A stretch of DNA of 32,000 nt from Pseudomonas aeruginosa (GCF_001457615.1 NZ_LN831024.1:2970001-3002000); one strand, 5' to 3'; positions 385 to 30,395 are shown, counted from the stretch's first letter. Notes: a model not told the origin generated them from the sequence alone. Made by a program: numbers and translations.

Positions 385-400
385 CTGTATGGATGTACAG
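385..400 (+). promoter_or_regulatory. LexA (SOS) box CTGTATGGATGTACAG at the centre of a 34-bp palindrome (376-409)
   Basis: Matches the gamma-proteobacterial CTGT-N8-ACAG consensus with TA flanks (TACTGTATGGATGTACAGTA), 41 nt upstream of ATG 442. It overlaps a candidate sigma70 promoter: -35 TTGTCA 360-365, 17-nt spacer, -10 TACTGT 383-388. Confidence 0.8.
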
Positions 401-441: not shown

Positions 442-729
442 ATGAGCCACAACCTTGCCGAACTGCCGCTGTCCCGACGCCGCGCCCTGGAGCGCGAGAA
501 ACAGGCCTGCCTGCGCCTCCACCTGTCCCGCAATCGTGCCAGCGAACGCCTGGAGCGCGCCGTGCGCGACGAAGTCGAGCGCCTGCTGGGTGCCCGCGAA
601 CGCCAGGGGGCCGGCTGGCCGGAGTGGGTCAGCGCGGAGCTCTGCGTGGCGGACGACCCGCTCTTCGTGCGCAAGGTGGTGGCGCGCCTGAAAGCCGCGG
701 TGGACTGGCAACGCCAGCGCGCAGCCTGA
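442..729 (+). CDS. Small (95 aa) Arg/Glu-rich, probably helical protein of unknown function; predicted SOS-inducible
   Basis: ATG is preceded by AAGGAG (428-433, 8-nt spacing), with the SOS box directly upstream. I recall the PAO1 equivalent (PA2288) being listed in the LexA regulon. No recognisable domain. Confidence 0.7.
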   Translation: MSHNLAELPLSRRRALEREKQACLRLHLSRNRASERLERAVRDEVERLLGARERQGAGWPEWVSAELCVADDPLFVRKVVARLKAAVDWQRQRAA

Positions 730-741
730 GCGTTGCTCGCT

Positions 742-1377
742 TCAGGCCCCGCTGCCGTCGCTCCCGGGCGCGCGATGATGTTGCAGGGCGCGCTGGCGAT
801 GGCCGGCGAGGATGTACCGGTAGATCAGTCGTGCGAGTGGCTCCAGCTCCATTTTCTGGCCGTTCAGCGCGGCGCCGCACAGCGCCAGCTTGACCCGCTT
901 GCCGCCGGCCACCGCGCGGGCTTCGGGGCGGGCGAAAGCCCGCGGGTCGAAACGGGCATGGCTGTCGAAGCGCGGTGCCGTGCAATCGAAGGTGGTCGCG
1001 AAGGTGAGTTCCAGCCAGCGCCCGCGCTCGATCTCCAGCGACTGGAAGGTGTACATCGGCACCTGCGGCGCGTTGGCGAAGGCGATGCTCTCCGGCGTCA
1101 GGGTGAGCGCGACCTGGCCGTGGCGCCGGTAGAGGAACACGCCCGCCAGGCAGGCGTACAGGCCGCCGCCCAGCAGCAGCGCGGCTGGCAGCCAGAACAG
1201 CCATTGGCCACTGGCCAGGCGCCAGGCGTTGGGCAGCGAAGCGAGCCAGAGACCGGTGGCGCCAGCCACCAGGCCAGCGAGCAGGGCAACGCAGGCGGTG
1301 CCCCGCGAGACCTCGCGGATCTCGCAGCGGGCTTCCAGCGGCGGCAGTTCGTCGAGGGTTTCGTCAGTTTCTTGCAT
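742..1377 (-). CDS. TM-hairpin protein, paralog C of the M48 operon (unknown function)
   Basis: ATG 1377 (alternative GTG 1389) overlaps the stop of the upstream M48 gene (1364-1366) by 14 nt. Two adjacent hydrophobic helices are followed by a beta-rich domain and a C-terminal helix. It shares the blocks KRVKLALCGAALNGQKM and LIYRYILAGHRQRAL with the ORFs at 2909-3571 and 3568-4239. Confidence 0.7.
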   Translation of the reverse strand: MQETDETLDELPPLEARCEIREVSRGTACVALLAGLVAGATGLWLASLPNAWRLASGQWLFWLPAALLLGGGLYACLAGVFLYRRHGQVALTLTPESIAFANAPQVPMYTFQSLEIERGRWLELTFATTFDCTAPRFDSHARFDPRAFARPEARAVAGGKRVKLALCGAALNGQKMELEPLARLIYRYILAGHRQRALQHHRAPGSDGSGA

Positions 1378-2908
1378 GGGGATTCTCACAGGTCTTGCCG
1401 AGCAGGTCGGCGCTGAGCGCTCGGCTCAACGCCAGGGGGGCGCCGAACCAGACGCCCAGCGCCTGGCTCGGCGGTCGTGTCGGAACGGCCCGGCCGGCGG
1501 TCCCGGCCCAGGTGCGTTCGAAGCTCTCTCCCAGCGCCGTGCAGCGCAGGCCCAGCGGAGGGTGGGTATCCTGCGGATGGACCTGGAGTCCCTCCGCCCC
1601 GGGGGCCGGTGCTTCCAGGCCGGACTGGCCCAGGTAGACGTGGATGGCGTCCACCAGGTTGTCCGGCGCGCGCGCCGGAGCGAGCAGGCAGTGTTCGAGG
1701 AACGCCCGTATCGGCGCGCCGGCCGCCGCGCTGCGCAGCAGGGCCGAGGCCATCGCCGGCGCACCGGCCAGTTGTGCGGCGCGGCGGTCGGCGGCGAATT
1801 CGCGCAGGCGGCTCCAGTGGTTCACGGCGAGGCCGAAACGTTCGAGGAAGTACCCGGCCAACAGTCGCGCCGGTTCCAGTGCCGCACGTTCGAAGACGTT
1901 GGCTTCCTGCTCCTCGATGGCGGCCAGTTGGCTCGCGGCGCCCTGGTAGATCGGCAGGAAGTGCAGGCTGTAATGGGCGTCGCGGCCGGCGAAGTGGGCC
2001 AGTTCGTGAGCGATCACTGCACTCAGTTCGGCGCGGTCCAGCAGGCCCAGCAACGGTAGCGAGAGGTATAGGCTGCGTCCTTGCAGATGCTCGCCGGAAG
2101 GTTGCAGGCAGACGCGGTTGGCGGTCACGTAGAAGCCGTCGCAGAGACCTACCAACAGGTGCTGCGGGGCTGGCGTGTCGAGGCGCGCCGCCAGCTCGCG
2201 CAGTAGCGTCCAGAGTTCCGGTGCATCCTCTTCGCCCAGCCGGCGGCCGATGACATCCAGGGCCGGCGCCGGGCGCAGGCGCAAGCGGCTGATCTTCGCC
2301 AGCATTTGCCACGCCGACGCCAGCAGGCCGAGAAGGATCAGCGCCACGCTCAGTTGGGTGCGTCCTTCGCTGACCGGAACCTGGCCGACCCGCCACAGCC
2401 CGAGGATCTCGAACGTTCCGGCACAGGCCAGGGCCAGGGCGAGCAGGCCGATCTGGGCGAGGAGCAGGCAGGGCAGCAGGCGTCGGCCCAGCTCGAACCA
2501 CAGGAGCAGGCAGCGACGCGAGCGCAGTGCGCTGCGTGCGGCGCCGGCGATGCCGGCCAGGGAGACGGCTCCCAATACGGCGACCAGCGCCGCCAGGCAG
2601 GCTCCGCTATCGGCGAGGACGGCGGCGAAGCGATTCAGGCGCTGTGCGCTTCGTGTGTCGGCGAGTCGCTCGTCGAGCCGCGCCAGGGCCAGGTCGCGCA
2701 CATAGGCCCGGCCGTCCACCCGGACGCTGGCCCTCGGCGGCAGCGCCCGCGCTTCGGCGAGCGCGCGCTCGACCCGCTGCTGCGCGGCGCCCAGTCGCTC
2801 GGCCTGCTGCTCGGCGCGCCAGGACTGCCAGGCGCCGAGCCCCGCCAGCAGCGCTGGAACCAGCACCAGGCAAAGCAGCAGCCTTCGCGGATGGACCGTG
2901 CCCTTCAC
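1364..2908 (-). CDS. Polytopic membrane M48-family Zn-metalloprotease (paralog 1, 514 aa)
   Basis: HELAH lies at 1994-2008, followed by WSRLREFAADRRAA (M48 RxxExxAD block) and a C-terminal THPP motif. The N-terminal third has about 4 hydrophobic segments. GTG start 2908 abuts the TGA of the upstream gene (2909-2911). Confidence 0.85.
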   Translation of the reverse strand: MKGTVHPRRLLLCLVLVPALLAGLGAWQSWRAEQQAERLGAAQQRVERALAEARALPPRASVRVDGRAYVRDLALARLDERLADTRSAQRLNRFAAVLADSGACLAALVAVLGAVSLAGIAGAARSALRSRRCLLLWFELGRRLLPCLLLAQIGLLALALACAGTFEILGLWRVGQVPVSEGRTQLSVALILLGLLASAWQMLAKISRLRLRPAPALDVIGRRLGEEDAPELWTLLRELAARLDTPAPQHLLVGLCDGFYVTANRVCLQPSGEHLQGRSLYLSLPLLGLLDRAELSAVIAHELAHFAGRDAHYSLHFLPIYQGAASQLAAIEEQEANVFERAALEPARLLAGYFLERFGLAVNHWSRLREFAADRRAAQLAGAPAMASALLRSAAAGAPIRAFLEHCLLAPARAPDNLVDAIHVYLGQSGLEAPAPGAEGLQVHPQDTHPPLGLRCTALGESFERTWAGTAGRAVPTRPPSQALGVWFGAPLALSRALSADLLGKTCENPHARN

Positions 2909-3571
2909 TCAGCCCTGGCTGCGCAGTTGTTGCAGGTAGCGCTGGGCGTGGGCGGCCTGGATGTAGGCGTCGAGGATCGCCGCCATGTCGTCGCAGTCCA
3001 GCTTCTTGCCATCGCTCTGCAGGCCGGCCGACATGATGGTGATGCGCGGGTCCTTGCCTTTGAAGGCCATGGCCTGGGAGGCGAACACCTGGCGTACGGC
3101 GCGATGGGTCGGCAGCGGCGTTTCGGGCCGCAGGTGGAGGGTCTGGGTGGTTTGCAGCATGTCGGCCTTGACGCTGAAATCGATGACGTCGGCCAGCTCG
3201 ACCGGAGCCGACAGGCTGTCGGCCCAGAGCTGGGTACGGGTCAGGCGCATGAAGGGGGTCTTGCCGGAGTTGCGATGCTGGTAGCCGAGGAACAGCCCGA
3301 ACAGGCCGAGCAGCAAGCCGACGACGCCGACCCCCGGCTTGCCCTGGGAGAACCACATGCCGGTCATGATGAAGGGCACGATGCTCAGCAGCGGACCCAG
3401 CACCACGTACTTGCGGGTATTGGTGAACTCGGTGGCCGGCGGTACGTTGGCGATCACCCGCTCCAGGTGGGCGATGACCTCGGCGGTCTTCGCCTGGTTC
3501 AGCTCTTCGTGTTCGGCACCGAGGGTTTCGGCGAGGTTGGAGACGAGGTCCCGGGGTTCCTGGTTGCTCAT
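2909..3571 (-). CDS. TM-hairpin protein, paralog B of the M48 operon (220 aa, unknown function)
   Basis: ATG 3571 is preceded by AAGGA and forms an ATGA overlap with the stop of the upstream gene (3568-3570). It has a helical N-terminus, two TM helices (VVLGPLLSIVPFIMTGMWF / VGVVGLLLGLFGLFLGY), then a domain with SLSAPVELADV, PRITIMSAGLQSDGKKL and a terminal helix ILDAYIQAAHAQRYLQQL. Confidence 0.8.
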   Translation of the reverse strand: MSNQEPRDLVSNLAETLGAEHEELNQAKTAEVIAHLERVIANVPPATEFTNTRKYVVLGPLLSIVPFIMTGMWFSQGKPGVGVVGLLLGLFGLFLGYQHRNSGKTPFMRLTRTQLWADSLSAPVELADVIDFSVKADMLQTTQTLHLRPETPLPTHRAVRQVFASQAMAFKGKDPRITIMSAGLQSDGKKLDCDDMAAILDAYIQAAHAQRYLQQLRSQG

Positions 3572-4239
3572 GGAAATATCCTTGGAGTTGGGAGTGAAGA
3601 GGAAGCACTGGGCGGGATCTCGCCCAGTTGGCGGAGCCGGGCCTGGGCGCGGGCGATGTCCAGGTAGAGGTCGATGACCTCCGCGGCTTCCAGTAGCGAC
3701 AGGTTGCGACCGTTGAGGCGCCAGCCGGGGGACAGCAGGCGAACCCGTGGGCCGTCCCGGCATTCGCTGACGGCACGCGCGGCGAACGGATCGAGCGGGC
3801 GCGTGGATGGTGCCGGTAGCGCCTTGCCGTGCAGTTCGAGGACTATCGCGGAGAACCAGACCCCGTCCTCCAGGCGCAGGTCGGCGACCTCCAGCAGGTC
3901 CAGCGGCGCCGACAGGCTACGGGCGCGCAGGCGCCCCTGGCCGAGGACGAGGAACGGCGCGTTCCTGGCGTTGCGCTGCAGGCAGGCCAGGCACATGAGG
4001 AGGGCGGCCGCCGCCAGCAGGCACAGCGCCGCCGCCTCATGGCCGGGACCGGGGTGGTCGCGCAAGGTCCAGGCGCCGCCGAGCAGCAGCAGGCCGAGCA
4101 GGGCGGACAGCGGCGCCGCGCCACGGGCGGCGCCGATGCTTATCCGGTTGGGGACGCTGGCGACGAAGCGCCGCAACTGCGTGGCTTCGTCGCCCCTTGT
4201 CCCGGGGGGGCAGGGCGTTTGCGCGCCCGGCGGGATCAC
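3568..4239 (-). CDS. TM-hairpin protein, paralog A of the M48 operon (about 223 aa, unknown function)
   Basis: This is the C-terminal third of the 619-aa track ORF. GTG 4239 forms a GTGA overlap with the stop of the M48 gene (4236-4238); TTG 4176 is an alternative start. It contains SLSAPLDLLEV, PRVRLLSPGWRLNGRNL and VIDLYLDIARAQARLRQL, which align with paralog B. Confidence 0.7.
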   Translation of the reverse strand: MIPPGAQTPCPPGTRGDEATQLRRFVASVPNRISIGAARGAAPLSALLGLLLLGGAWTLRDHPGPGHEAAALCLLAAAALLMCLACLQRNARNAPFLVLGQGRLRARSLSAPLDLLEVADLRLEDGVWFSAIVLELHGKALPAPSTRPLDPFAARAVSECRDGPRVRLLSPGWRLNGRNLSLLEAAEVIDLYLDIARAQARLRQLGEIPPSASSSLPTPRIFP

Positions 4240-5693
4240 CGGCTTTCCCCGTGGCCTGCATCGAGCAGGCGGTTGAGCCACTGCGTGTCGTCGGCGCTGA
4301 CGATGCGCCTTGCCTGTCGCAGCAGATCGTCGTCGAGCGCCAGGGAAAGGTCCGCGATCCGCTGGAAGGTCGGCGGGTGACTGTCGAAGGGGTGTTCCAG
4401 GCGGCGAGCGCTGTCGTGTTCGTCCAGTTCCAGGGAGTTCCCGCGCAGATGGTCGGTCAGCGCATGCACCAGGTTGCGCGTCTGCGGGCTGGCCAGCAGG
4501 CGTTCGATCAGTCCTGCAAGGGCGCAGGTGCGTAGCAGCGCGATGGCGAAGACCCGCGCGCCGGCTACCCGCGCCCCGACCTTGTCGGCGGCCAGTTCCT
4601 GGCGGCGATTCCAGTGCAGGTAGGCGCGCTCGAAGCGATCGAGGAAGTACAGCGCGGCCCACAGGCCCGGCTTGCCGAGCAGGCCGACATGCCCATCCTC
4701 GGGGGCGGCGATGCGTTCGATGCGCAGGCGCACCTGCCGCTGCAGGAGCGACAGGGATGCACCGTGGGCGGTGTCGCCGGCGGCGAAGTGGCCCAGTTCG
4801 TGGCCGATGATCGCGGCGCTTTCGGCCTCGCTCATGACCGAGGCATAGGTCAGCGGGATGTACAGGGTACGCCCCTCCAGCGGAATGCCGCGGGGCGCCA
4901 GCAGGACCTTGGCCTGGGTGACGAAGTAGCAGTGCTCGATGCCGGTGACGACATGGTCCGGTAGCGGCGCTCCGGCGCGGTCGGCGATCTGTCCCAGCCA
5001 TTGCCAGAGGCCGGGCGCGGCGACCCGGTCGAGTTCGCGGCCGAGCAGGTGGAGCACCGGTTCCTCCAGCGGCAGCAGTTCGCCGCGCAGGCGCCGCAGC
5101 ATGAGCAGGCCGCCGAGGAACAGCAGCCACAGCGGCAGCGAGAAGAGCAGGGCGACGAAGCCGTGGCTGTGCCAGTGGCTGTAGCTCCACAGCGCTTCGT
5201 AGAGCAACTGGCTGGCCAGGGCGGCGACCAGCAGGCCAGCGTGCAGCGGGACCAGTCGACCGAGGCGCCGCCAGGCCGGCGCGAGGTGGCCGAGCAGGTA
5301 GGCTTGCGAGCGCATCGAGCGGCGCCCGTCGTATTCCAGTCTCGCCAGCAAGGCGGCCGCGACCAGCGCCGACGCCAGCGCGCAGAGCTTGCCGATAGCG
5401 GCCAGCCAGCCGCGCAGAGCCAGCCAAGGATGGTCGCGGCGGATGGCCTCGGCGTCTTCGGCGAACTGGTGAAGATGACCTTCGACGCCATAGGCCGGAC
5501 GGAACAGGTGACGGGGAATGGCGCCGGCGGCGTCCGGGTCGTTGCGCACCGAGGCGCTCCAGTCGCGCATGAACTGTTCGTCGCGCAGGGTCGAGTCGAC
5601 CCGGAAGGCCTGCACGGCGGACCAGGCGTAGAGCGCCAGGGGAATCAGGAAGAGGAATGCGAGCAGCCTTACCCGCAGCGTATCGTGGCTCAT
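4236..5693 (-). CDS. Polytopic membrane M48-family Zn-metalloprotease (paralog 2, 485 aa)
   Basis: HELGH lies at 4788-4802, followed by WNRRQELAADKVGA and SHPPTFQRIADL, which is the HtpX/Ste24-type M48 signature. It has the same N-terminal architecture as 1364-2908 (TM1, about 60-aa loop, three further TMs). The ATG is 6 nt after the TAA of the upstream gene. Confidence 0.85.
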   Translation of the reverse strand: MSHDTLRVRLLAFLFLIPLALYAWSAVQAFRVDSTLRDEQFMRDWSASVRNDPDAAGAIPRHLFRPAYGVEGHLHQFAEDAEAIRRDHPWLALRGWLAAIGKLCALASALVAAALLARLEYDGRRSMRSQAYLLGHLAPAWRRLGRLVPLHAGLLVAALASQLLYEALWSYSHWHSHGFVALLFSLPLWLLFLGGLLMLRRLRGELLPLEEPVLHLLGRELDRVAAPGLWQWLGQIADRAGAPLPDHVVTGIEHCYFVTQAKVLLAPRGIPLEGRTLYIPLTYASVMSEAESAAIIGHELGHFAAGDTAHGASLSLLQRQVRLRIERIAAPEDGHVGLLGKPGLWAALYFLDRFERAYLHWNRRQELAADKVGARVAGARVFAIALLRTCALAGLIERLLASPQTRNLVHALTDHLRGNSLELDEHDSARRLEHPFDSHPPTFQRIADLSLALDDDLLRQARRIVSADDTQWLNRLLDAGHGESR

Positions 5694-5699
5694 CCGCGT

Positions 5700-6128
5700 T
5701 TATTTCTGCTCGAGGTAGTCGGTCAGGAATGCCTGGGGCTCGCCTGCGGACGACAGCGACTCGCTATAGGCGACCTGCCGCGTCTGCTGTTCGCCGGGCA
5801 GGTAGAGCTCGCCCCAGCCGTCGCGCACGATCAGGATCACATACTTGCTGCCGTTCAGTTCGGTGGAATAGCGACTGTCCCTGGCGCTCTTTTCCACCTT
5901 TACCTTGTGGATCAGGCGGTCCCAGTCGTGGTCCAGTCCTTCGACCTGCAACAGCGCTTCGTCGGCCGCCGCTTCGCCGATACGCAGGGTCCAGACCTTG
6001 AGCCCCTGCTGGCCCTGGTAGGCCACCACCTTGTCGGCGACTGGCGGCCGCGCCTCTTCGGCCTGCGCCGTGCAGGATCCCCACGCCAGTGCGCCCATCA
6101 GCAGCGCCGCAGTCCACTTTGCTATCAT
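5700..6128 (-). CDS. Small secreted/periplasmic protein (142 aa), first gene of the M48 operon
   Basis: The internal ATG 6128 is preceded by AGGGGG. The N-terminus MIAKWTAALLMGALAWGSCTAQA/EE looks like a Sec signal peptide with an AxA cleavage site. No recognisable domain. Confidence 0.7.
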   Translation of the reverse strand: MIAKWTAALLMGALAWGSCTAQAEEARPPVADKVVAYQGQQGLKVWTLRIGEAAADEALLQVEGLDHDWDRLIHKVKVEKSARDSRYSTELNGSKYVILIVRDGWGELYLPGEQQTRQVAYSESLSSAGEPQAFLTDYLEQK

Positions 6129-6325
6129 TCTCGCCCCCTTTGGCAACGCGATGTAAAAGGGGCGCATCTATTAATACAGGCGCGAGCCACGAACAACCGA
6201 GGCGGCCGCCGCTCACAGGAAAAGCGTCGTCGCCCACAGGTTCGGTTCGATCAGCGCACGGAACCATCCTGGAAAGCCGATGCCTGAACCGGTTCAGATG
6301 GTTGCGTCCCACCGATACCTACGCC

Positions 6326-7270
6326 ATGGAAAGCTGGAATCCCTACCACGACACGGAGCTCTATTTCGACGCTCCTTCACCCCTGTGCCAGTCGCAGATC
6401 CTCGACGCGCGCGAAATGCTCGGCAGCGCCACCGGTCACTACCAGGCGCGGACGGTGCGCCCGTCGATGCAGTATTTCGATTGCGACCTGAGCTTCACCG
6501 AGCCGCTGCGAACCCACAAGGTGCTGCCGGAAGGCCTGTGCATCGTGCAGATGTTCGATGGCCAGTGGCGGCACAGCGTCGACGGCGGCGAGCCTTATCT
6601 CTACAACCTGGGCGGTCCTTCGGTGCTCGGCACCGGCGAGCCGATGGAGGCCTTCGATATCCTGCCGGCGGGCAGCCGCGTGCGCCTGGGCGGGCTGCGG
6701 ATCGCCGCCAGCTATCTGGAAGAGGAACTGGAAACCGGCGATGGCGCCTTGCGGCCGCTGGCGCGGCTGAAGGGCGACGGCGCGAGCTTTACCCAGTTGT
6801 CCCGTTGCGGCGCCATCACCGCCCTGTTCGAGCGCCTCTACCAGAATCCATACCGCGGCGCCCTCGGACGCCTGCACGAAGAGAGCCTGACCCTGGGCCT
6901 GCTGGTGGAGCTGGCCGCCTACCTGGGCGGCGCGGACCTTCGTCGCGCGCGCACCCCACGCGCCCAGCGCGACCTGGCCCATGAAGCGCGCCGCCTGCTG
7001 GAGGCGAACCTCGGTGAGCCGCCGGCCAGCCTCGAACTGGCGCGCCAACTGGGGGTCGGCGAAACCACCCTGCGGCGGATTTTCAAGAACGAGTTCGGTC
7101 GCTCGATGTTGCAGTACGTCCGCGACCGGCGTCTCGAGATCGGCCGGCAGATGGTCCGCGAGGGTCGCTGGCAGATCGCGCAGATAGCCTATCGCCTGGG
7201 TTACTCCAGTCCGGAAAACTTCACCCATGCCTACCGCGCGCGCTTCGGCCATCCGCCGGGGCGCGAGTGA
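6326..7270 (+). CDS. AraC/XylS-family transcriptional regulator (314 aa), divergent from the M48 operon
   Basis: The C-terminal double HTH reads ...LARQLGVGETTLRRIFKNEFGRSMLQYVRDRRLEIGRQMV...IAQIAYRLGYSSPENFTHAYRARFGHPP. The start is taken at the first internal Met because the track start 6089 would overlap the divergent gene. Confidence 0.85.
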   Translation: MESWNPYHDTELYFDAPSPLCQSQILDAREMLGSATGHYQARTVRPSMQYFDCDLSFTEPLRTHKVLPEGLCIVQMFDGQWRHSVDGGEPYLYNLGGPSVLGTGEPMEAFDILPAGSRVRLGGLRIAASYLEEELETGDGALRPLARLKGDGASFTQLSRCGAITALFERLYQNPYRGALGRLHEESLTLGLLVELAAYLGGADLRRARTPRAQRDLAHEARRLLEANLGEPPASLELARQLGVGETTLRRIFKNEFGRSMLQYVRDRRLEIGRQMVREGRWQIAQIAYRLGYSSPENFTHAYRARFGHPPGRE

Positions 7271-7282
7271 GGCGGACGCGGT

Positions 7283-7975
7283 TCAGAGCGAACGCTGGTC
7301 GACCCGCGCGGAAAGCTGCTCGGCGCTTTCCTTGCGCTCCGAATAGCGGTCCACCAGGAAGTCCGTGCGCTCGCGCAGGAGCAGGGTGAACTTGAACAAC
7401 TCCTCCATCACGTCGACCACCCGGTCGTAGTAGGGCGATGGCTTCATCCGGCCCGCTTCGTCGAACTCCAGGTAGGCCTTGGGAACCGAGGACTGGTTGG
7501 GGATGGTGAACATGCGCATCCAGCGACCCAGCACGCGCAACTGGTTGACCACGTTGAACGACTGCGAGCCGCCGCAGACCTGCATCACCGCCAGGGTCTT
7601 GCCCTGGGTCGGGCGCACCGCCCCGAGTGCCAGGGGAATCCAGTCGATCTGCGCCTTGAATACCGCGGACAGCGCACCGTGGCGCTCGGGCGAGCACCAG
7701 ACCTGGCCTTCCGACCACTGCACCAGGTCGCGCAACTCGCGGACCTTGGGATGCTCCACCGGTGCATCGTCGGGCAATGGCAGCCCGGAAGGGTCGAAAA
7801 TCCGCGTTTCGGCACCGAAGCGTTCGAGCAGGCGTGCGGCCTCCAGCACCAGCAGGCGGCTGAAGGAGCGCTCGCGGGTCGAGCCGTAGAGCAGGAGGAT
7901 GCGCGGCCTGTGCCCGGAGACGGGGGGCGGGTCGCCGAGCAGCGCGGGATCGAGGTTGGGTAGTTGTTCGGACAT
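7283..7975 (-). CDS. arsH: ArsH, NADPH-dependent FMN reductase of the ars operon
   Basis: [45 protein letters not shown] is a typical ArsH flavodoxin-like N-terminus. It is the last gene of the arsRBCH cluster. Confidence 0.9.
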
Positions 7976-7986
7976 GCTTCCTCCGG

Positions 7987-8457
7987 TCAGAGCGAGCCGA
8001 TGCGCTCCAGCTCACGCTTGAGCTGGTCGCGATCCAGGGTAGCGAAGGGCAGGCCGAGGAAGGCTCGGCAACGCTGTTCGATGCGTGCCAGGGTGGCGTG
8101 GAACGCCGCATCCCGCAGGGCTTCGTCGCCATCCAGGGCGGAGGGATCGGCCAGGCCCCAATGGGCCTTCAGCGCTGCGCCGAGATACAGCGGGCAGGCT
8201 TCCCCCGCGGCGGCGTCGCAAACGGTAATGACGATGTCCGGCGGTGCGCCTTCGAAGGCTTCGCTGCCCTTGCTGTACAGGCCGTGGGTGGCGATGCCGG
8301 CCTGTTCGAGGGTCGCCAGGCTGCGCGGATGCACCCGCCCGCTGGGCTGGCTGCCGGCGCTGCATGCCTCGAAACCCGGCGGGGCCAGGTGGTTGAACAT
8401 GGCTTCGGAAAGAATGCTGCGGCAACTGTTGGCCGTGCACATGAACAGGACTCGCAT
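7987..8457 (-). CDS. arsC: Arsenate reductase, LMW-PTPase (thioredoxin-coupled) type
   Basis: The N-terminal [14 protein letters not shown] carries the CX5R phosphatase loop. It has ars operon context. Confidence 0.9.
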
Positions 8458-8488
8458 GGGATGCTCCTGCCGCCGTCGCCGGCGGCCG

Positions 8489-9772
8489 TCAGATGGCCAG
8501 GCGCAGGGCCAGGGCCGAAAGGGTCGCCAGCAGGACCGGCAGGGTCAGCAGGGCGCCGATCCTGAAGTAGTAGCCCCAGGTGATGCGCATGCCTTTGCGC
8601 GCCAGCACGTGCAGCCAGAGCAGCGTCGCCAGGCTGCCGATAGGGGTGATCTTCGGACCCAGGTCGCAGCCGATGACGTTGGCGTAGATCATCGCTTCGC
8701 GCACCGCGCCGGCGGTGTCGCTGGCCTGGATCGACAGGGCGCCGAGCAGCACGCTGGGCATGTTGTTCATTACCGACGAGAGGGCGGCGGAAAGCAGTCC
8801 GGTACCCAGCGCGGCCGCCCATACGCCGTGCTCGGCCAGGCGGTTCAGGAGCTGCGCCAGGAGGTCGGTGAGACCGGCGTTCTTCAGGCCGTAGACCACC
8901 AGGTACATGCCCAGCGAGAAGACCACGATCTGCCAGGGCGCTTCGCGCAGCACCCGCCGGGTCGAGATCACCCGCCCGCGCCCGGCCACCGCCAGCAGCA
9001 GTGCCGCACAGGCCGCGGCCACCGCGCTGACGGGGACGCCCAGCGGCTCCAGGGCGAACAGCCCGGCGAGCAGGACCAGCAGCATCCAGCCACCGACGAC
9101 GAAGGTCGCGCGGTCGCGGATCGCCGCCCGCGGCGGCTTCAATTGCTCCAGCGCATAGACCGGCGGCAGGTCGCGGCGGAAATAGAGGAACAGCACCAGC
9201 AGGGAGGTCGCGACGCTCACCAGGTTTACCGGCAGCATGACCGCGGCGTACTCGCCGAAGCCGAGCCCGAAGTAGTCGGCCGAGACGATGTTCACCAGGT
9301 TCGAGACCACCAGCGGCAGGCTGGCGCTGTCGGCGATGAAGCCCGCCGCCATGACGAAGGCCAGGGTCGCCGCCGGGCTGAAGCGCAGGGCCAGCAGCAT
9401 CGACATCACGATGGGCGTGAGGATCAGCGCCGCGCCGTCGTTGGCGAACAGCGCCGAGACCGCCGCGCCGAGCAGCACGCAGAAGGCGAACAGGCGCCGG
9501 CCGTCGCCGCCAGCCCAGCGCGCGACGTGCAGCGCGGCCCATTCGAAGAAGCCGGCCTCGTCCAGCAGCAGGCTGATGACGATCACCGCGATGAAGGTGG
9601 CGGTGGCATTCCAGACGATGTTCCAGACGGTCGGGATGTCGCCCGGCGCGACGCTGCCCAGCGCCAGGGCGAGCAGGGCGCCGATGCTGGCGCTCCAGCC
9701 GATGCCGAGGCCCCTGGGCTGCCAGATGACCAGGACCAGGGTGAACAGGAAGATGGCGAAGGCGATCAGCAT
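8489..9772 (-). CDS. arsB: Arsenite efflux permease ArsB
   Basis: 427-aa polytopic protein whose N-terminus [28 protein letters not shown] is characteristic of the ArsB family. It lies between arsR and arsC. Confidence 0.9.
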
Positions 9773-10214: not shown

Positions 10215-11105
10215 CTAGCGGCGGGCGGCCTGGACTTCCTCGCTCGGCGTGCGCCCGAAGTAGCGCTTGAACTCGCGGCTGAACTGCGAGGGACTCTCGT
10301 AGCCGACCTGGTTGGCGGCGGTACTGGCGTTCAGCCCGTCCTGCACCATCAGGCTCCAGGCCTTGTACAGGCGCACGCTCTTCAGGTACTGGAGGGGCGA
10401 GGTGAAGGTCATCGCCTTGAAGTTGTGGTGGAAGGTCGACACGCTCATGTTCGCCTCGCGAGCCAGGGTGTCGATGTCCAGCGCACTGGCGTAGTCGGTG
10501 TGGATGCGCCGCAGGGCCCTGGCCATGCGCCCGTAGCCGCTGTGCCGGCCGGCCACCGCACGCAGGGCGTTGCCCTGCTCGCTGCGCAGGGCGCGGAAGA
10601 TGATCTCGCGGACCAGTTGCGGGCCGAGGATATGGCTGTCCAGCGGGCTCTGCAGGCAGCCCAGCAGGCGCATCACCGCATCGGCCATCCCCGCGTCCAG
10701 CGGTACCGAAGCCATCGGCGCGCTGGGTGCCAGCTCATTGTCGTCGTCGCTGCCGGGAGCCTCTTCCATCTGTAGCAGCAGTTCCTTCAAGGTGCCGATA
10801 TCCACGTCGACGCTCACTCCCAGCAAGGGTTCGGCGGCGGAGGCGTGGGTTTCGCATTCGAACGGCAGGGGCACCGACATCACCAGGTAGCGTTCGGCGT
10901 CGTAGCGGTAGGTTTCGCCGCCGAGGAAACCGATCTTCTGGCCCTGGGCGAGGATGCAGATGCGCGGCTCATAGAACACCGGGCTGCGCGGATAGGCCTG
11001 TTCGGCGCGCATCAGGCGAACCCCGGGGATGCGGGTGGCGTCGAAACCCGGTTCGTCTTGCAGGGTGGCGATCAGCGACGCCATGTCGGTGGAAGTAGTG
11101 CTCAT
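10215..11105 (-). CDS. AraC-family regulator with an N-terminal AraC_N-type ligand domain (296 aa)
   Basis: The C-terminal HTH reads LAREANMSVSTFHHNFKAMTFTSPLQYLKSVRLYKA...VGYESPSQFSREFKRYFG. The start is at internal ATG 11105 (MSTTSTDMASL...); the track N-terminal extension is Arg/Cys/Pro-rich and runs into the intergenic region. Confidence 0.85.
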   Translation of the reverse strand: MSTTSTDMASLIATLQDEPGFDATRIPGVRLMRAEQAYPRSPVFYEPRICILAQGQKIGFLGGETYRYDAERYLVMSVPLPFECETHASAAEPLLGVSVDVDIGTLKELLLQMEEAPGSDDDNELAPSAPMASVPLDAGMADAVMRLLGCLQSPLDSHILGPQLVREIIFRALRSEQGNALRAVAGRHSGYGRMARALRRIHTDYASALDIDTLAREANMSVSTFHHNFKAMTFTSPLQYLKSVRLYKAWSLMVQDGLNASTAANQVGYESPSQFSREFKRYFGRTPSEEVQAARR

Positions 11106-11313
11106 GCCTTGGCTGTTTCTCCAGGAGGGGAGGCAAACGTAGCAACCCCGTGCGCGCCTGGGCAGTGGCGGCACGCAACATCGGCATGAATGGGCAAGGC
11201 TTCGACAGGAATGGACATTCTGCGGCGGCGCCCATCCGGCGAACAATTGCCCCCCGAACGGACCGCCGCCAGCAAGCCGTCGCGGCCCGCCATCCTGCGA
11301 AGAGGACACACCG

Positions 11314-28894: not shown

Positions 28895-28964
28895 GGACCT
28901 GGTACCTCTTGGTGCTGTTCTTATTGGTGTGTCCGGCTGGTCTTCGCCAGCGGATGCCAGGAGT

Positions 28965-28978
28965 TGAAACCGGTTTCA
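28965..28978. promoter_or_regulatory. PtxS operator TGAAACCGGTTTCA (autoregulation)
   Basis: Second perfect copy of the 14-bp palindrome, 71 nt upstream of the ptxS start. Confidence 0.85.
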
Positions 28979-29456
28979 GAAAATACCAGAAGGCCGATGC
29001 CCGTCAACGGGAAAAAAACGCCTACCGGGGCCGAGCCAGGCATGAGGCCAGGACGTTGTTCATGAAAACCGAATAATCGTTTCGAATGATGGTTTGCAAT
29101 TATTAATGTCGAATGGAATGAATGTGCCATATCTCCATAAATAAAAAGGAAGTTTGTCCAATACTTGAGAAACTACTTTAAGAAGGTTTTGTCGGTAGAA
29201 AGCGATCAATCAGGCGAGCTTCGCTGACATGAAAAGCACCCGGCCGACCGTCTGAAGCAGTTCTCATTTATCGGAAAACGAAGGTGGCGCGCTGAAACTT
29301 ATGCGCGCCTGGCGGTCTTTATCGACGACCTGACCGCCCGGTCGCGTCATCACGCTCACCGATCGTTGCGGGTCCTGTCGAATGCCGCCGTTCCGTCGCA
29401 GCAGGATTTTTCGACAAGACCCGTCCGGACCCACTTCCCGGCTAAGGAATGACAGG

Positions 29457-30395
29457 ATGAGCGCCGCCCTGGAGCGATTGAATCATCTGAACCTGAATCA
29501 CTTGTATGCCTTCGTCGCCGTCGCCGAACACAACAGCTTCACCGCCGCGGCGGAGGCCCTGGGCTTGTCGAAATCGCTACTCAGCGAGCAGTTGCGACGC
29601 CTGGAGGCCGACCTCGGGATCCAGTTGCTGACCCGTACCACCCGTCGCATGACCCTTACCGATCGCGGCGAACTGCTGTTCGGCGTGGCCCAGCGCATGC
29701 TCGGCGAGCTGGACGGCGCGCTCTCCGATGTGCGCGACCTGCAGGGCGAGCCCAGTGGCCGGTTGCGCATCACCGCGCCGCAGGACTTCGTCAAGTGGCA
29801 CATCAGCAGCGTTTCCGCGGCGTTCATCCGGCAGTTTCCCAAGGTCCAGGTGGAAATGCTGGCCGATGACCAGTTCAGCGATCTGGTCGGCCAGCGCATC
29901 GATCTCGCAGTACGTATCGGCTGGCCGCGCGACTCCGGCCTGCATGCCAGCAAGCTGTGCGACTTCCAGCAGGTTGCCGTGGCGACGCCGGGATACCTCG
30001 CCGGCCTGCCGCCGGTGCTCCAGCCGCACGACCTGGCGCGTTGCGAATGGATCGGCCATACCCGCCTGAGCACGCCCTGGACCTGGACCTTCGAACGCCA
30101 GCGCGAGCGTGCCACGGTACAGACCCGAGGGCGCCTGCTGGCGAACAACACCCTGGCGGTGTACCGCCTGGTGCTCGACGGTGCCGGCGTCAGCGTGCTG
30201 CCGAGCTTCCTGGTGGCCCGCGAGATCGCCCGCGGGCGGCTGGTCCGGCTGCTACCTGGCTGGCACCTGCCGCAGGGCGGCATCTATGCCCTGTACCCCT
30301 CGGCGCGCTACATGCCGGTGCGGGTCAGGGCGTTCATCGAGTCGCTGCGCGAGCATCTCGGTCGCGAGCCGTTCCGCCTGGCGCAGGGCGAATGA
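29457..30395 (+). CDS. ptxR: PtxR, LysR-type transcriptional regulator (312 aa)
   Basis: HTH LYAFVAVAEHNSFTAAAEALGLSKSLLSEQLRRLEADLGIQLLTRTTR. Internal ATG 29457 is preceded by AAGGA. It sits between ptxS and the pvc cluster. Confidence 0.9.
   Translation: MSAALERLNHLNLNHLYAFVAVAEHNSFTAAAEALGLSKSLLSEQLRRLEADLGIQLLTRTTRRMTLTDRGELLFGVAQRMLGELDGALSDVRDLQGEPSGRLRITAPQDFVKWHISSVSAAFIRQFPKVQVEMLADDQFSDLVGQRIDLAVRIGWPRDSGLHASKLCDFQQVAVATPGYLAGLPPVLQPHDLARCEWIGHTRLSTPWTWTFERQRERATVQTRGRLLANNTLAVYRLVLDGAGVSVLPSFLVAREIARGRLVRLLPGWHLPQGGIYALYPSARYMPVRVRAFIESLREHLGREPFRLAQGE

Follow-up and report, generated by a model that had tools for sequence, protein, structure and literature searches.

M48 proteases and hairpin partners of the Pseudomonas aeruginosa persister operon PA2282–PA2287 occur as single fused polypeptides in other bacteria

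DNA damage induces small membrane proteins that inhibit division until proteolysis lifts the block, namely YneA of Bacillus subtilis, SosA of Staphylococcus aureus, and SidA and DidA of Caulobacter; YneA is paired with YlbL and CtpA and SosA with CtpA. Inhibitors of the YneA, SosA, and SidA type have a single transmembrane (TM) helix; those whose action has been described target late divisome proteins or work from outside the membrane. The proteases that go with YneA and SosA are serine enzymes encoded elsewhere, and both inhibitors are under the control of LexA. Another arrangement, in which a polytopic membrane zinc protease is held together with a small two-helix membrane regulator, is that of SpoIVFB, BofA, and SpoIVFA in B. 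subtilis. Here we analyse a stretch of 32,000 nucleotides (nt) of the P. aeruginosa chromosome (GCF_001457615.1 NZ_LN831024.1:2970001-3002000; hereafter the window) and, within it, the six-gene operon PA2282–PA2287, which encodes a predicted periplasmic protein (g1, PA2282), two M48 proteases (M48a, PA2283, and M48b, PA2286), and three membrane proteins that contain a TM hairpin (hpA, PA2284; hpB, PA2285; and hpC, PA2287).

A role of this locus in persistence has already been published: two later papers (PMC13041383, PMC8065639) in which one laboratory summarises its own study, Long et al. 2019 (J Antimicrob Chemother 74:2575), report that PA2282–PA2287 is up-regulated in persisters that survive ciprofloxacin, that overexpression of PA2285 or PA2287 raises survival ~100-fold, and that RpoC and FtsZ are bound by PA2285 and by PA2287, with inhibition of transcription and of FtsZ polymerisation. 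In the portions of these accounts available to us, the six genes form a single operon, and PA2285 and PA2287 are treated as stand-alone persister factors and are the two genes with a reported role; one of the papers states explicitly that PA2282–PA2287 is equivalent to PA14_35060–PA14_35010 (PMC13041383). These reports contradict a preliminary description of the window, which had taken the function of the operon to be unknown and had matched it to no characterised system. Induction has been seen under other conditions as well. In a study of the UV-C transcriptome, the 18 induced genes with no known control by LexA, PrtR, or AlpR include PA2284, PA2285, and PA2287 (PMC12796719), and PA14_35010 (the PA14 name of PA2287) appears among the top up-regulated genes under pine honey. 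A further paper names PA2285 as an AmrZ gene (PMC3985676), which appears to be a locus-tag error unrelated to the operon. The published text at hand does not deal with the predicted topology, the putative pleckstrin homology (PH)-like fold, the M48 fusions across the family, any roles of PA2282, PA2283, PA2284, and PA2286, or the candidate AraC-type promoter. The obligate link between a clade of M48 proteases and the hairpin proteins, with fusions that match both P. aeruginosa modules, appears, like the proposed fold and promoter, to be undescribed in that literature.

Word-index homology searches with the hairpin proteins recovered almost exclusively P. aeruginosa sequences, and the resulting alignment was too shallow, so that an exhaustive hidden Markov model (HMM) search of 1.84 billion representatives, with clusters formed at 50% identity, was needed to reveal the family. 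It yielded 79 hairpin-family clusters, on contigs whose GC content ranges from 43% to 74%. At least 11 of the 79 representatives are proteins of 629-737 amino acids (aa) in which the hairpin domain is C-terminal, and all eight of those scanned with Pfam carry an M48 domain in front of it. One natural fusion, P0137, joins an M48a-type protease to an hpB-type domain (43% and 39% identity), and another, P0157, joins an M48b-type protease to an hpC-type domain (47% and 44% identity). In the light of these two proteins, the P. aeruginosa operon can be seen as a pair of fusion modules that have been split, one made up of M48a, hpA, and hpB and the other of M48b and hpC. Most natural fusions have an M48 part that is closest to M48b. 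Two M48–hairpin fusion genes stand in tandem on one metagenomic contig (L042; 2735-4891 and 4986-7130), a parallel to the two modules of P. aeruginosa.

In the reverse direction, metagenome contigs were searched with an alignment of the M48 proteins, giving 80 loci. The match spans the whole architecture, including helix 1, in 40 of them, and 36 of these 40 have enough contig to judge. A hairpin domain is present in all 36, in the same open reading frame (ORF) in 27 and in an adjacent one in nine, the M48 HMM having been trained partly on fusion proteins, which could favour fusion-like relatives among the full-architecture matches, and the presence of a hairpin having been scored independently. 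This is the co-occurrence for which the preliminary description had proposed a gene-neighbourhood census. Among the other 40 loci, in which the match lacks the N-terminal part, 22 have no hairpin, 11 have one (mostly truncated ORFs or shorter, Pseudomonas-type M48 proteins), and in seven the contig is too short. The 22 distant, hairpin-less M48 loci (within L075-L109), many of low GC content, match through the catalytic domain and the last helices, and several of their ORFs are 500-600 aa long with C-terminal extensions. No conserved neighbours of the fusion genes were found on these contigs, and the M48–hairpin pair therefore appears to be self-contained; genes for g1 and for an AraC-family regulator are confined to the split, Pseudomonas-type loci.

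How the genes are arranged when they are separate was examined in a genome census with one genome per species, which was limited to hpB-type genes, since the broad hairpin alignment offered no conserved segment that could serve as a query. It yielded 27 loci, of which 26 belong to Pseudomonas or close relatives. Local HMM searches of the ORFs in these loci distinguished six layouts: the AraC gene followed by g1-M48-hp-hp-M48-hp in P. aeruginosa and P. paraeruginosa; g1-M48-hp-hp in P. flavescens and P. alabamensis; g1-M48-hp in P. palleroniana and P. salomonii; g1-hpB-hpC-M48 in nine species of the putida/fulva group; g1 with one or two hairpin genes and no M48 in five loci; and hpB-hpC alone in seven. 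Hairpin genes thus lack an M48 gene within 8 kb in 12 of the 27 loci, each from a different species, and no M48 remnants are found there. The widely conserved core is a pair of one hpB-type and one hpC-type protein, the same two proteins for which activity has been published. The single M48 of other species is of the M48a type (orthologous to PA2283), and hpA is a lineage-restricted paralogue of hpB with no clear orthologue in other species; by these comparisons hpA and M48b are additions of the aeruginosa lineage.

The dependence between the two kinds of protein is asymmetric: the full-architecture type of M48 is always accompanied by a hairpin domain (36/36), whereas hairpin pairs can occur without the protease. 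The idea of a repeated protease-plus-partner module, put forward in the preliminary description, is upheld by synteny in Pseudomonas and its relatives and by the fusions, which are the state of most environmental relatives. The two modules are not equivalent, however, and 12 of the 27 hairpin loci have no M48. In the seven loci with hpB and hpC alone (L005, L006, L024, L025, L027, L028, and L029) the two genes overlap, their surroundings are unrelated from locus to locus, and no gene for M48, g1, or an AraC regulator lies within 8 kb; the pair has the appearance of a two-gene unit that is mobile or useful on its own. One of these loci, on a contig labelled 'Enterobacterales bacterium' (L027), nearly equals the P. 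entomophila locus (L028) in the lengths of its ORFs, the positions of the matches, and the HMM scores; mis-binning of the contig or a recent transfer is probable.

In the window, an ORF check found six abutting or overlapping minus-strand ORFs at 742-6128 (Table 1), and the five junctions listed in the preliminary description were reproduced exactly: TAA, 6 nt, and ATG between g1 and M48a (5700/5693); a GTGA overlap between M48a and hpA (4236-4239); an ATGA overlap between hpA and hpB (3568-3571); TGA with GTG immediately after it between hpB and M48b (2911-2906); and a 14-nt overlap between M48b and hpC (1364-1377). GC content at third codon positions is 0.83-0.90 in all six frames, which is typical for real genes of this genome and similar to that of the neighbouring ars genes, and identical protein sequences are present on more than 1000 P. 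aeruginosa contigs. The arrangement of the six genes is real and not due to chance, and the window is core P. aeruginosa chromosome. Alternative starts exist for g1 (a longer, 155-aa ORF from 6167; the ATG at 6128 gives the form in public annotation) and for hpC (a GTG at 1389). A promoter scan found no sigma-70-like promoter within the operon, and terminator-like sites inside it are at chance level (three seen against 2.5 expected), all with poor T-tails and all within coding sequence. We infer that the six genes are PA2282–PA2287 because the UniProt accessions run in order, because arsRBCH lies at ~7.3-10.2 kb, and because a related contig has the TonB-receptor/gcd/oprB neighbourhood.

Table 1. 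Features of the operon and its promoter region in the window.
Feature	Description	Coordinates	Strand	Basis
g1 (PA2282)	142 aa, predicted periplasmic	5700-6128	-	ATG at 6128 with GGGGG Shine-Dalgarno
M48a (PA2283)	485 aa, zinc metalloprotease	4236-5693	-	Pfam PF01435, HEXXH 298-302
hpA (PA2284)	223 aa, hairpin protein, GTG start	3568-4239	-	family HMM 7e-42
hpB (PA2285)	220 aa, hairpin protein	2909-3571	-	UniProt Q9I1J0
M48b (PA2286)	514 aa, M48 paralogue, GTG start	1364-2908	-	Pfam, HEXXH 301-305
hpC (PA2287)	211 aa, hairpin protein, second conserved subtype	742-1377	-	UniProt Q9I1I8, family HMM 2e-39
AraC-family regulator (PA2281)	314 aa, divergent from operon	6326-7270	+	HTH_18
Predicted operon promoter		6168-6240	-	conserved 21-bp-spaced direct repeat plus -35/-10-like elements

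Among the six operon proteins, a Pfam match is limited to the two proteases, which match Peptidase_M48 (PF01435) with E 1.3e-12 and 48.4 bits for M48a and E 4.2e-15 and 56.5 bits for M48b (gathering cut-off 20.3) and are paralogues of each other (BLASTP 2e-26). In an alignment of 18 diverse relatives, residues H298, E299, H302, E366, A369, D370, H434, P435, D437, H439, and P440 are invariant, and E366 is the probable third zinc ligand. The preliminary description had found the HEXXH, ExxAD, and HPP blocks intact in both proteases, and the alignment extends this to the family; because HEXXH, E366, D370, and the HPxDxHP block are invariant in the 18 relatives, both enzymes look catalytically active. 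In each, the first 200 residues contain four hydrophobic helices, and a catalytic domain of ~290 residues comes next. Arg is abundant ahead of helix 1 and behind helices 2 and 4, so that hydropathy and positive-inside charges would make both the N-terminus and the catalytic domain cytoplasmic. The loop between helices 1 and 2, of ~70 residues, is poorly conserved. The M48 proteins of P. palleroniana (L007: 6684-8000), P. salomonii (L008: 6630-7991), and three metagenomic loci (L034-L036) are ~438-453 aa long and lack most of the helix 1-2 segment (HMM positions ~38-91), and because it is mostly deleted in these five loci this periplasmic loop is dispensable. Matches of the catalytic domain to the HtpX models of NCBIfam are weak (E 3e-10), with a best score of 39.6 bits against a cut-off of 341 and the other models also far below their cut-offs, and membership of HtpX was rejected on these scores. 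Membership of the M56 family of BlaR1 and MecR1 was rejected as well (PF05569, E 0.075, 12.6 bits against a cut-off of 31; no sensor domain follows the C-terminal catalytic domain). A phmmer search of the proteases against solved structures gave no match.

As the preliminary description had proposed, the three hairpin proteins are paralogous. BLASTP aligns hpA with hpB at E 3e-17, and hpC with hpB at 1e-6 and with hpA at 2e-3, in the C-terminus only. Each has two hydrophobic helices and, by prediction, both termini in the cytoplasm. For hpB, an AlphaFold2 model built from six sequences (pLDDT 76, pTM 0.63) runs from an N-terminal helix through a short strand at the conserved TEFTNTR, two TM helices, and seven strands to a long C-terminal helix. 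In a Foldseek search of this model against the PDB, the informative matches were all of the PH superfold (Pob3/SSRP1/Spt16, the GRK2 PH domain, and the CCM2 PTB domain) and weak, the best at E 0.026. A motif resembling DAPLP, with P154 nearly invariant, lies on a loop in an exposed, low-confidence part of the model. The bPH_2 domain of the YdbS/YdbT type likewise has a two-helix hairpin directly before a seven-strand domain and a C-terminal helix; the hairpin family differs from it in an extra conserved strand, TEFTNTR, before the first TM helix and in having no bPH match in Pfam. Specifically, neither 50 full-length members nor 33 C-terminal domains gave a match to bPH_1 to bPH_6 at E up to 10. 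Searches of the hairpin family against Pfam (per member) and the PDB (by profile), with the whole protein and with the C-terminal domain alone, returned just TM-driven or chance matches. With low-to-moderate confidence, the cytoplasmic domain of hpB is thus modelled as PH-like while not being filed under bPH. The four non-protease proteins of the operon, in which the preliminary description could name no domain, have no sequence match in Pfam, NCBIfam, PADLOC, or the PDB.

The remaining protein, g1, begins with a signal peptide whose signal-peptidase-I site, AxA|E, is conserved. Its 20 orthologues, in species of Pseudomonas and relatives, are 52-61% identical and have the motifs KVWTLRIG, DHDW, VEKTxxDTRY, and AQAFLTDYL in common. 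We considered and rejected the possibility that g1 is a lipoprotein, since the Cys is confined to P. aeruginosa and P. paraeruginosa and the other 19 orthologues lack it and keep AxA|E. No match to g1 was found in Pfam, NCBIfam, or the PDB, including by profile search against the PDB, and a single-sequence AlphaFold2 model was unusable (pLDDT 56.6). The gene is kept in the five loci with hairpin genes and no M48 and is present in none of the fusion loci, tracking the hairpin and AraC genes rather than M48.

Upstream of g1, two direct half-sites two helical turns apart that abut a -35 element are the classic layout for an activator of the AraC family. On the minus strand of the window, cctgtgggcg (6240-6231) and cctgtgagcg (6219-6210) form a direct repeat with a spacing of exactly 21 base pairs (bp), followed by a -35-like ttgttc (6196-6191) and a -10-like attaat/taatag (6175-6168). 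A [T/C]TGTG-N4 repeat with 21-bp spacing, and then a TTGGCA -35 and a TTCAAT -10, is conserved in 19 of 19 intergenic regions between the AraC gene and g1 (181-206 bp). The regulator gene is real, as the preliminary description had it; its product, PA2281, matches HTH_18 (E 2.1e-20) and HTH_AraC (5.8e-11), with the MarA, Rob, and SoxS structures matching residues 219-312, and its N-terminal 220 residues match no known family. An orthologue (E ~1e-100) lies divergent beside g1 in 18 of the 27 census loci. The tie between regulator and operon drawn in that description is supported, both the orthologue and the operator-like repeat being conserved with the cluster, and the repeat is predicted to be the site at which the divergent AraC regulator activates the operon. 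A perfect 14-bp palindrome, CTGAACCGGTTCAG, at 6284-6297, just upstream of the AraC start, is present in P. aeruginosa and P. paraeruginosa and absent from the other 17 intergenic regions; it was rejected as an operator of the family for this reason, and could be a binding site of a lineage-specific regulator.

Control of the operon by LexA as part of the SOS response was rejected. No LexA box (CTGT-N8-ACAG) is found within 6128-6326, with up to one mismatch allowed, in agreement with the published placement of PA2284, PA2285, and PA2287 outside the LexA, PrtR, and AlpR regulons (PMC12796719). The sole perfect LexA box of the window, CTGTATGGATGTACAG at 385-400 (+), lies 42 nt upstream of a 95-aa ORF at 442-729 (+) that has no family match and is, by position, PA2288, a gene cited among 15 SOS genes of P. 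aeruginosa. This ORF converges on the operon; its stop codon lies just 12 nt from the hpC stop codon, and the scan detected no terminator-like site in between, so that transcripts induced by the SOS response may continue into PA2287 in the antisense direction.

These observations can be combined into a model, which we prefer and hold tentatively: the operon would encode a membrane complex, made under stress, whose PH-like partner binds and holds proteins of the cytoplasm as clients for the protease to act on. The operon would be turned on by genotoxic, oxidative, or antibiotic stress without the involvement of LexA, the switch being the divergent AraC-type regulator acting at the 21-bp-spaced repeat that abuts the -35 element. 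The products would be a periplasmic protein, g1, and two copies of a two-part inner-membrane machine. One part would be the M48 protease (PA2283 or PA2286), with its four TM helices and cytoplasmic catalytic domain, and the other its hairpin partner, PA2284 and PA2285 going with the first protease and PA2287 with the second. Protease and partner would work as one complex, because they are one polypeptide in most other bacteria, and the partner is more plausibly a client-binding or regulatory module of the protease than its prey, because permanent fusion, the majority state, suits cooperating subunits better than an enzyme and its prey. The cytoplasmic domains of the partners would capture cytoplasmic proteins at the membrane, the published clients being FtsZ and the beta' subunit of RNA polymerase, and this capture would slow division and transcription and so give rise to drug-tolerant cells. 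The protease most likely acts on what the partner holds, and would thereby set the strength or duration of the arrest. A broader proposal, possible and in our estimate doubtful, is that the M48–hairpin pair represents a widespread class of inner-membrane proteases, bipartite or fused and so far undescribed, in which a tethered PH-like domain recruits soluble cytoplasmic proteins such as FtsZ and RNA polymerase to a zinc protease, providing a LexA-independent proteolytic growth brake that Pseudomonas has split, duplicated, and placed under an AraC-type regulator with a periplasmic accessory protein.

Several points weigh against the model of a client-capturing complex. The protease–partner complex and any substrate are putative, and control by the AraC-family regulator is predicted from a conserved motif. 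The PH-like assignment is weak, coming from a six-sequence model with a pLDDT of 76, a best Foldseek E of 0.026, and no bPH sequence match. The binding of FtsZ and RpoC was reported by a single laboratory, here through its two later papers, and overproduction of a membrane protein can raise tolerance non-specifically. No model accounts for g1, which occurs without M48 and is absent from the fusion loci. Finally, the 12 loci with no M48 show that the partners act without this protease, which fits a sequestering effector better than a pure adaptor. This last point bears on a rather unlikely alternative, in which the hairpin proteins are themselves stress-induced, membrane-anchored inhibitors of growth or division and the M48 proteins are dedicated degraders that limit them and clear them for regrowth, just as damage-induced division inhibitors are removed by proteases in Gram-positive bacteria. 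The protease depends on the hairpin and not the reverse (12/27 against 36/36), and the conserved DAPLP-like loop, in an exposed and low-confidence region of the model, could be a cleavage site. Hairpin proteins are also reported to be active alone when overexpressed (PMC13041383, PMC8065639). Yet permanent fusion, in 27 of 36 loci, would be odd for an enzyme meant to destroy the domain to which it is fused, and species without M48 would have no off-switch.

Two further explanations seem less probable. The M48 proteins could be HtpX-like housekeeping proteases for damaged membrane proteins, with the hairpins as regulatory or inhibitory subunits and the persister effect a side effect of overproduction. 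The weak HtpX-model matches of the catalytic domain (E 3e-10), induction by stresses as unrelated as ciprofloxacin, UV-C, and pine honey, and the stand-alone fusions with no conserved context are all consistent with such a function, which we nevertheless consider improbable: the best score, 39.6 bits against 341, is far under the HtpX cut-offs, hairpin pairs with no protease have no role in such a model, and the effects on FtsZ polymerisation and transcription are reported to be specific (PMC13041383, PMC8065639). Very unlikely, in our view, is trans-membrane signalling, in which a cue perceived through g1 and the periplasmic M48 loop would lead to site-specific cleavage of the hairpin and release into the cytoplasm of a PH-like domain that binds FtsZ and RNA polymerase, in the manner of BlaR1 or of regulated proteolysis. 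Such a scheme would give a place to g1, which is well conserved, periplasmic, and encoded by the first gene of the operon, to the ~70-residue loop between helices 1 and 2, and to the reported targets, which are soluble cytoplasmic proteins (PMC13041383, PMC8065639). However, the loop is poorly conserved and mostly deleted in five loci that keep g1 (L007, L008, and L034-L036), g1 persists in five loci with no M48 and is absent from all fusion loci, and the proteases have no sensor domain and no significant match to M56 in Pfam (E 0.075).

Relapse of P. aeruginosa infections is driven by persister cells, and few loci besides this operon have been reported to increase their frequency ~100-fold. 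If its proteases and hairpin proteins form one enzyme, as the fusions indicate, then interventions would have a different target, and cells would enter and leave dormancy by a different logic. The same finding would provide a first way into the function of a family of M48 membrane proteases none of which has been studied. There are also signs of a circuit that responds to DNA damage but lies outside the three known LexA-like regulons, possibly under the control of PA2281.

The surroundings of the operon in the window are ordinary. Beyond PA2281 lie arsH, arsC, and arsB-like ORFs at 7283-9772 (-) and a second AraC-family regulator, with an AraC_N domain, at 10215-11309 (-). At the other side, the C-terminal end of an apparent outer-membrane receptor of the TonB-dependent type enters from the window edge (25-321, +). 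GC content dips to 0.59 over 29001-30000 (region 28900-29400), coinciding with the intergenic region between apparent LacI-type and LysR-type regulator genes, and the window contains no tRNA genes.

Classified by sequence, the proteases are M48 but not HtpX, the regulator belongs to AraC/XylS, and the partners fall in no curated family. A role in anti-phage defence was rejected, the six proteins having no match among the PADLOC HMMs at E up to 1, and the composition of the operon, with membrane proteins of 211-514 aa and a separate AraC regulator, does not fit a type II toxin-antitoxin system. BlaR1 and MecR1 of the M56 family likewise combine four membrane helices with a cytoplasmic zinc protease that acts on a cytoplasmic regulator, and differ from PA2283 and PA2286 in having an extracellular sensor domain, the match of the latter to M56 not being significant. 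SpoIVFB is a site-2 protease of family M50, not M48, BofA has no PH-like domain, and no sequence relation of either to PA2282–PA2287 was detected. The nearest known counterpart of the operon is the locus itself as published. In mode of action it resembles the YneA, SosA, and SidA systems and also SpoIVFB with BofA, without belonging to either group. Unlike the YneA, SosA, and SidA systems, the operon has reported cytoplasmic targets (FtsZ and RpoC), an M48 enzyme alongside or fused to the membrane protein, and no LexA box. Other M48 membrane zinc proteases are HtpX, Ste24, and Oma1, with which those of the operon have in common the Peptidase_M48 domain, HEXXH with a downstream Glu, a membrane anchor, and an active site that faces the cytoplasm, as predicted for PA2283 and PA2286; what sets PA2283 and PA2286 apart is the architecture of four N-terminal helices followed by a ~290-residue catalytic domain and, in 36 of 36 loci, an obligate and putatively PH-like partner domain.

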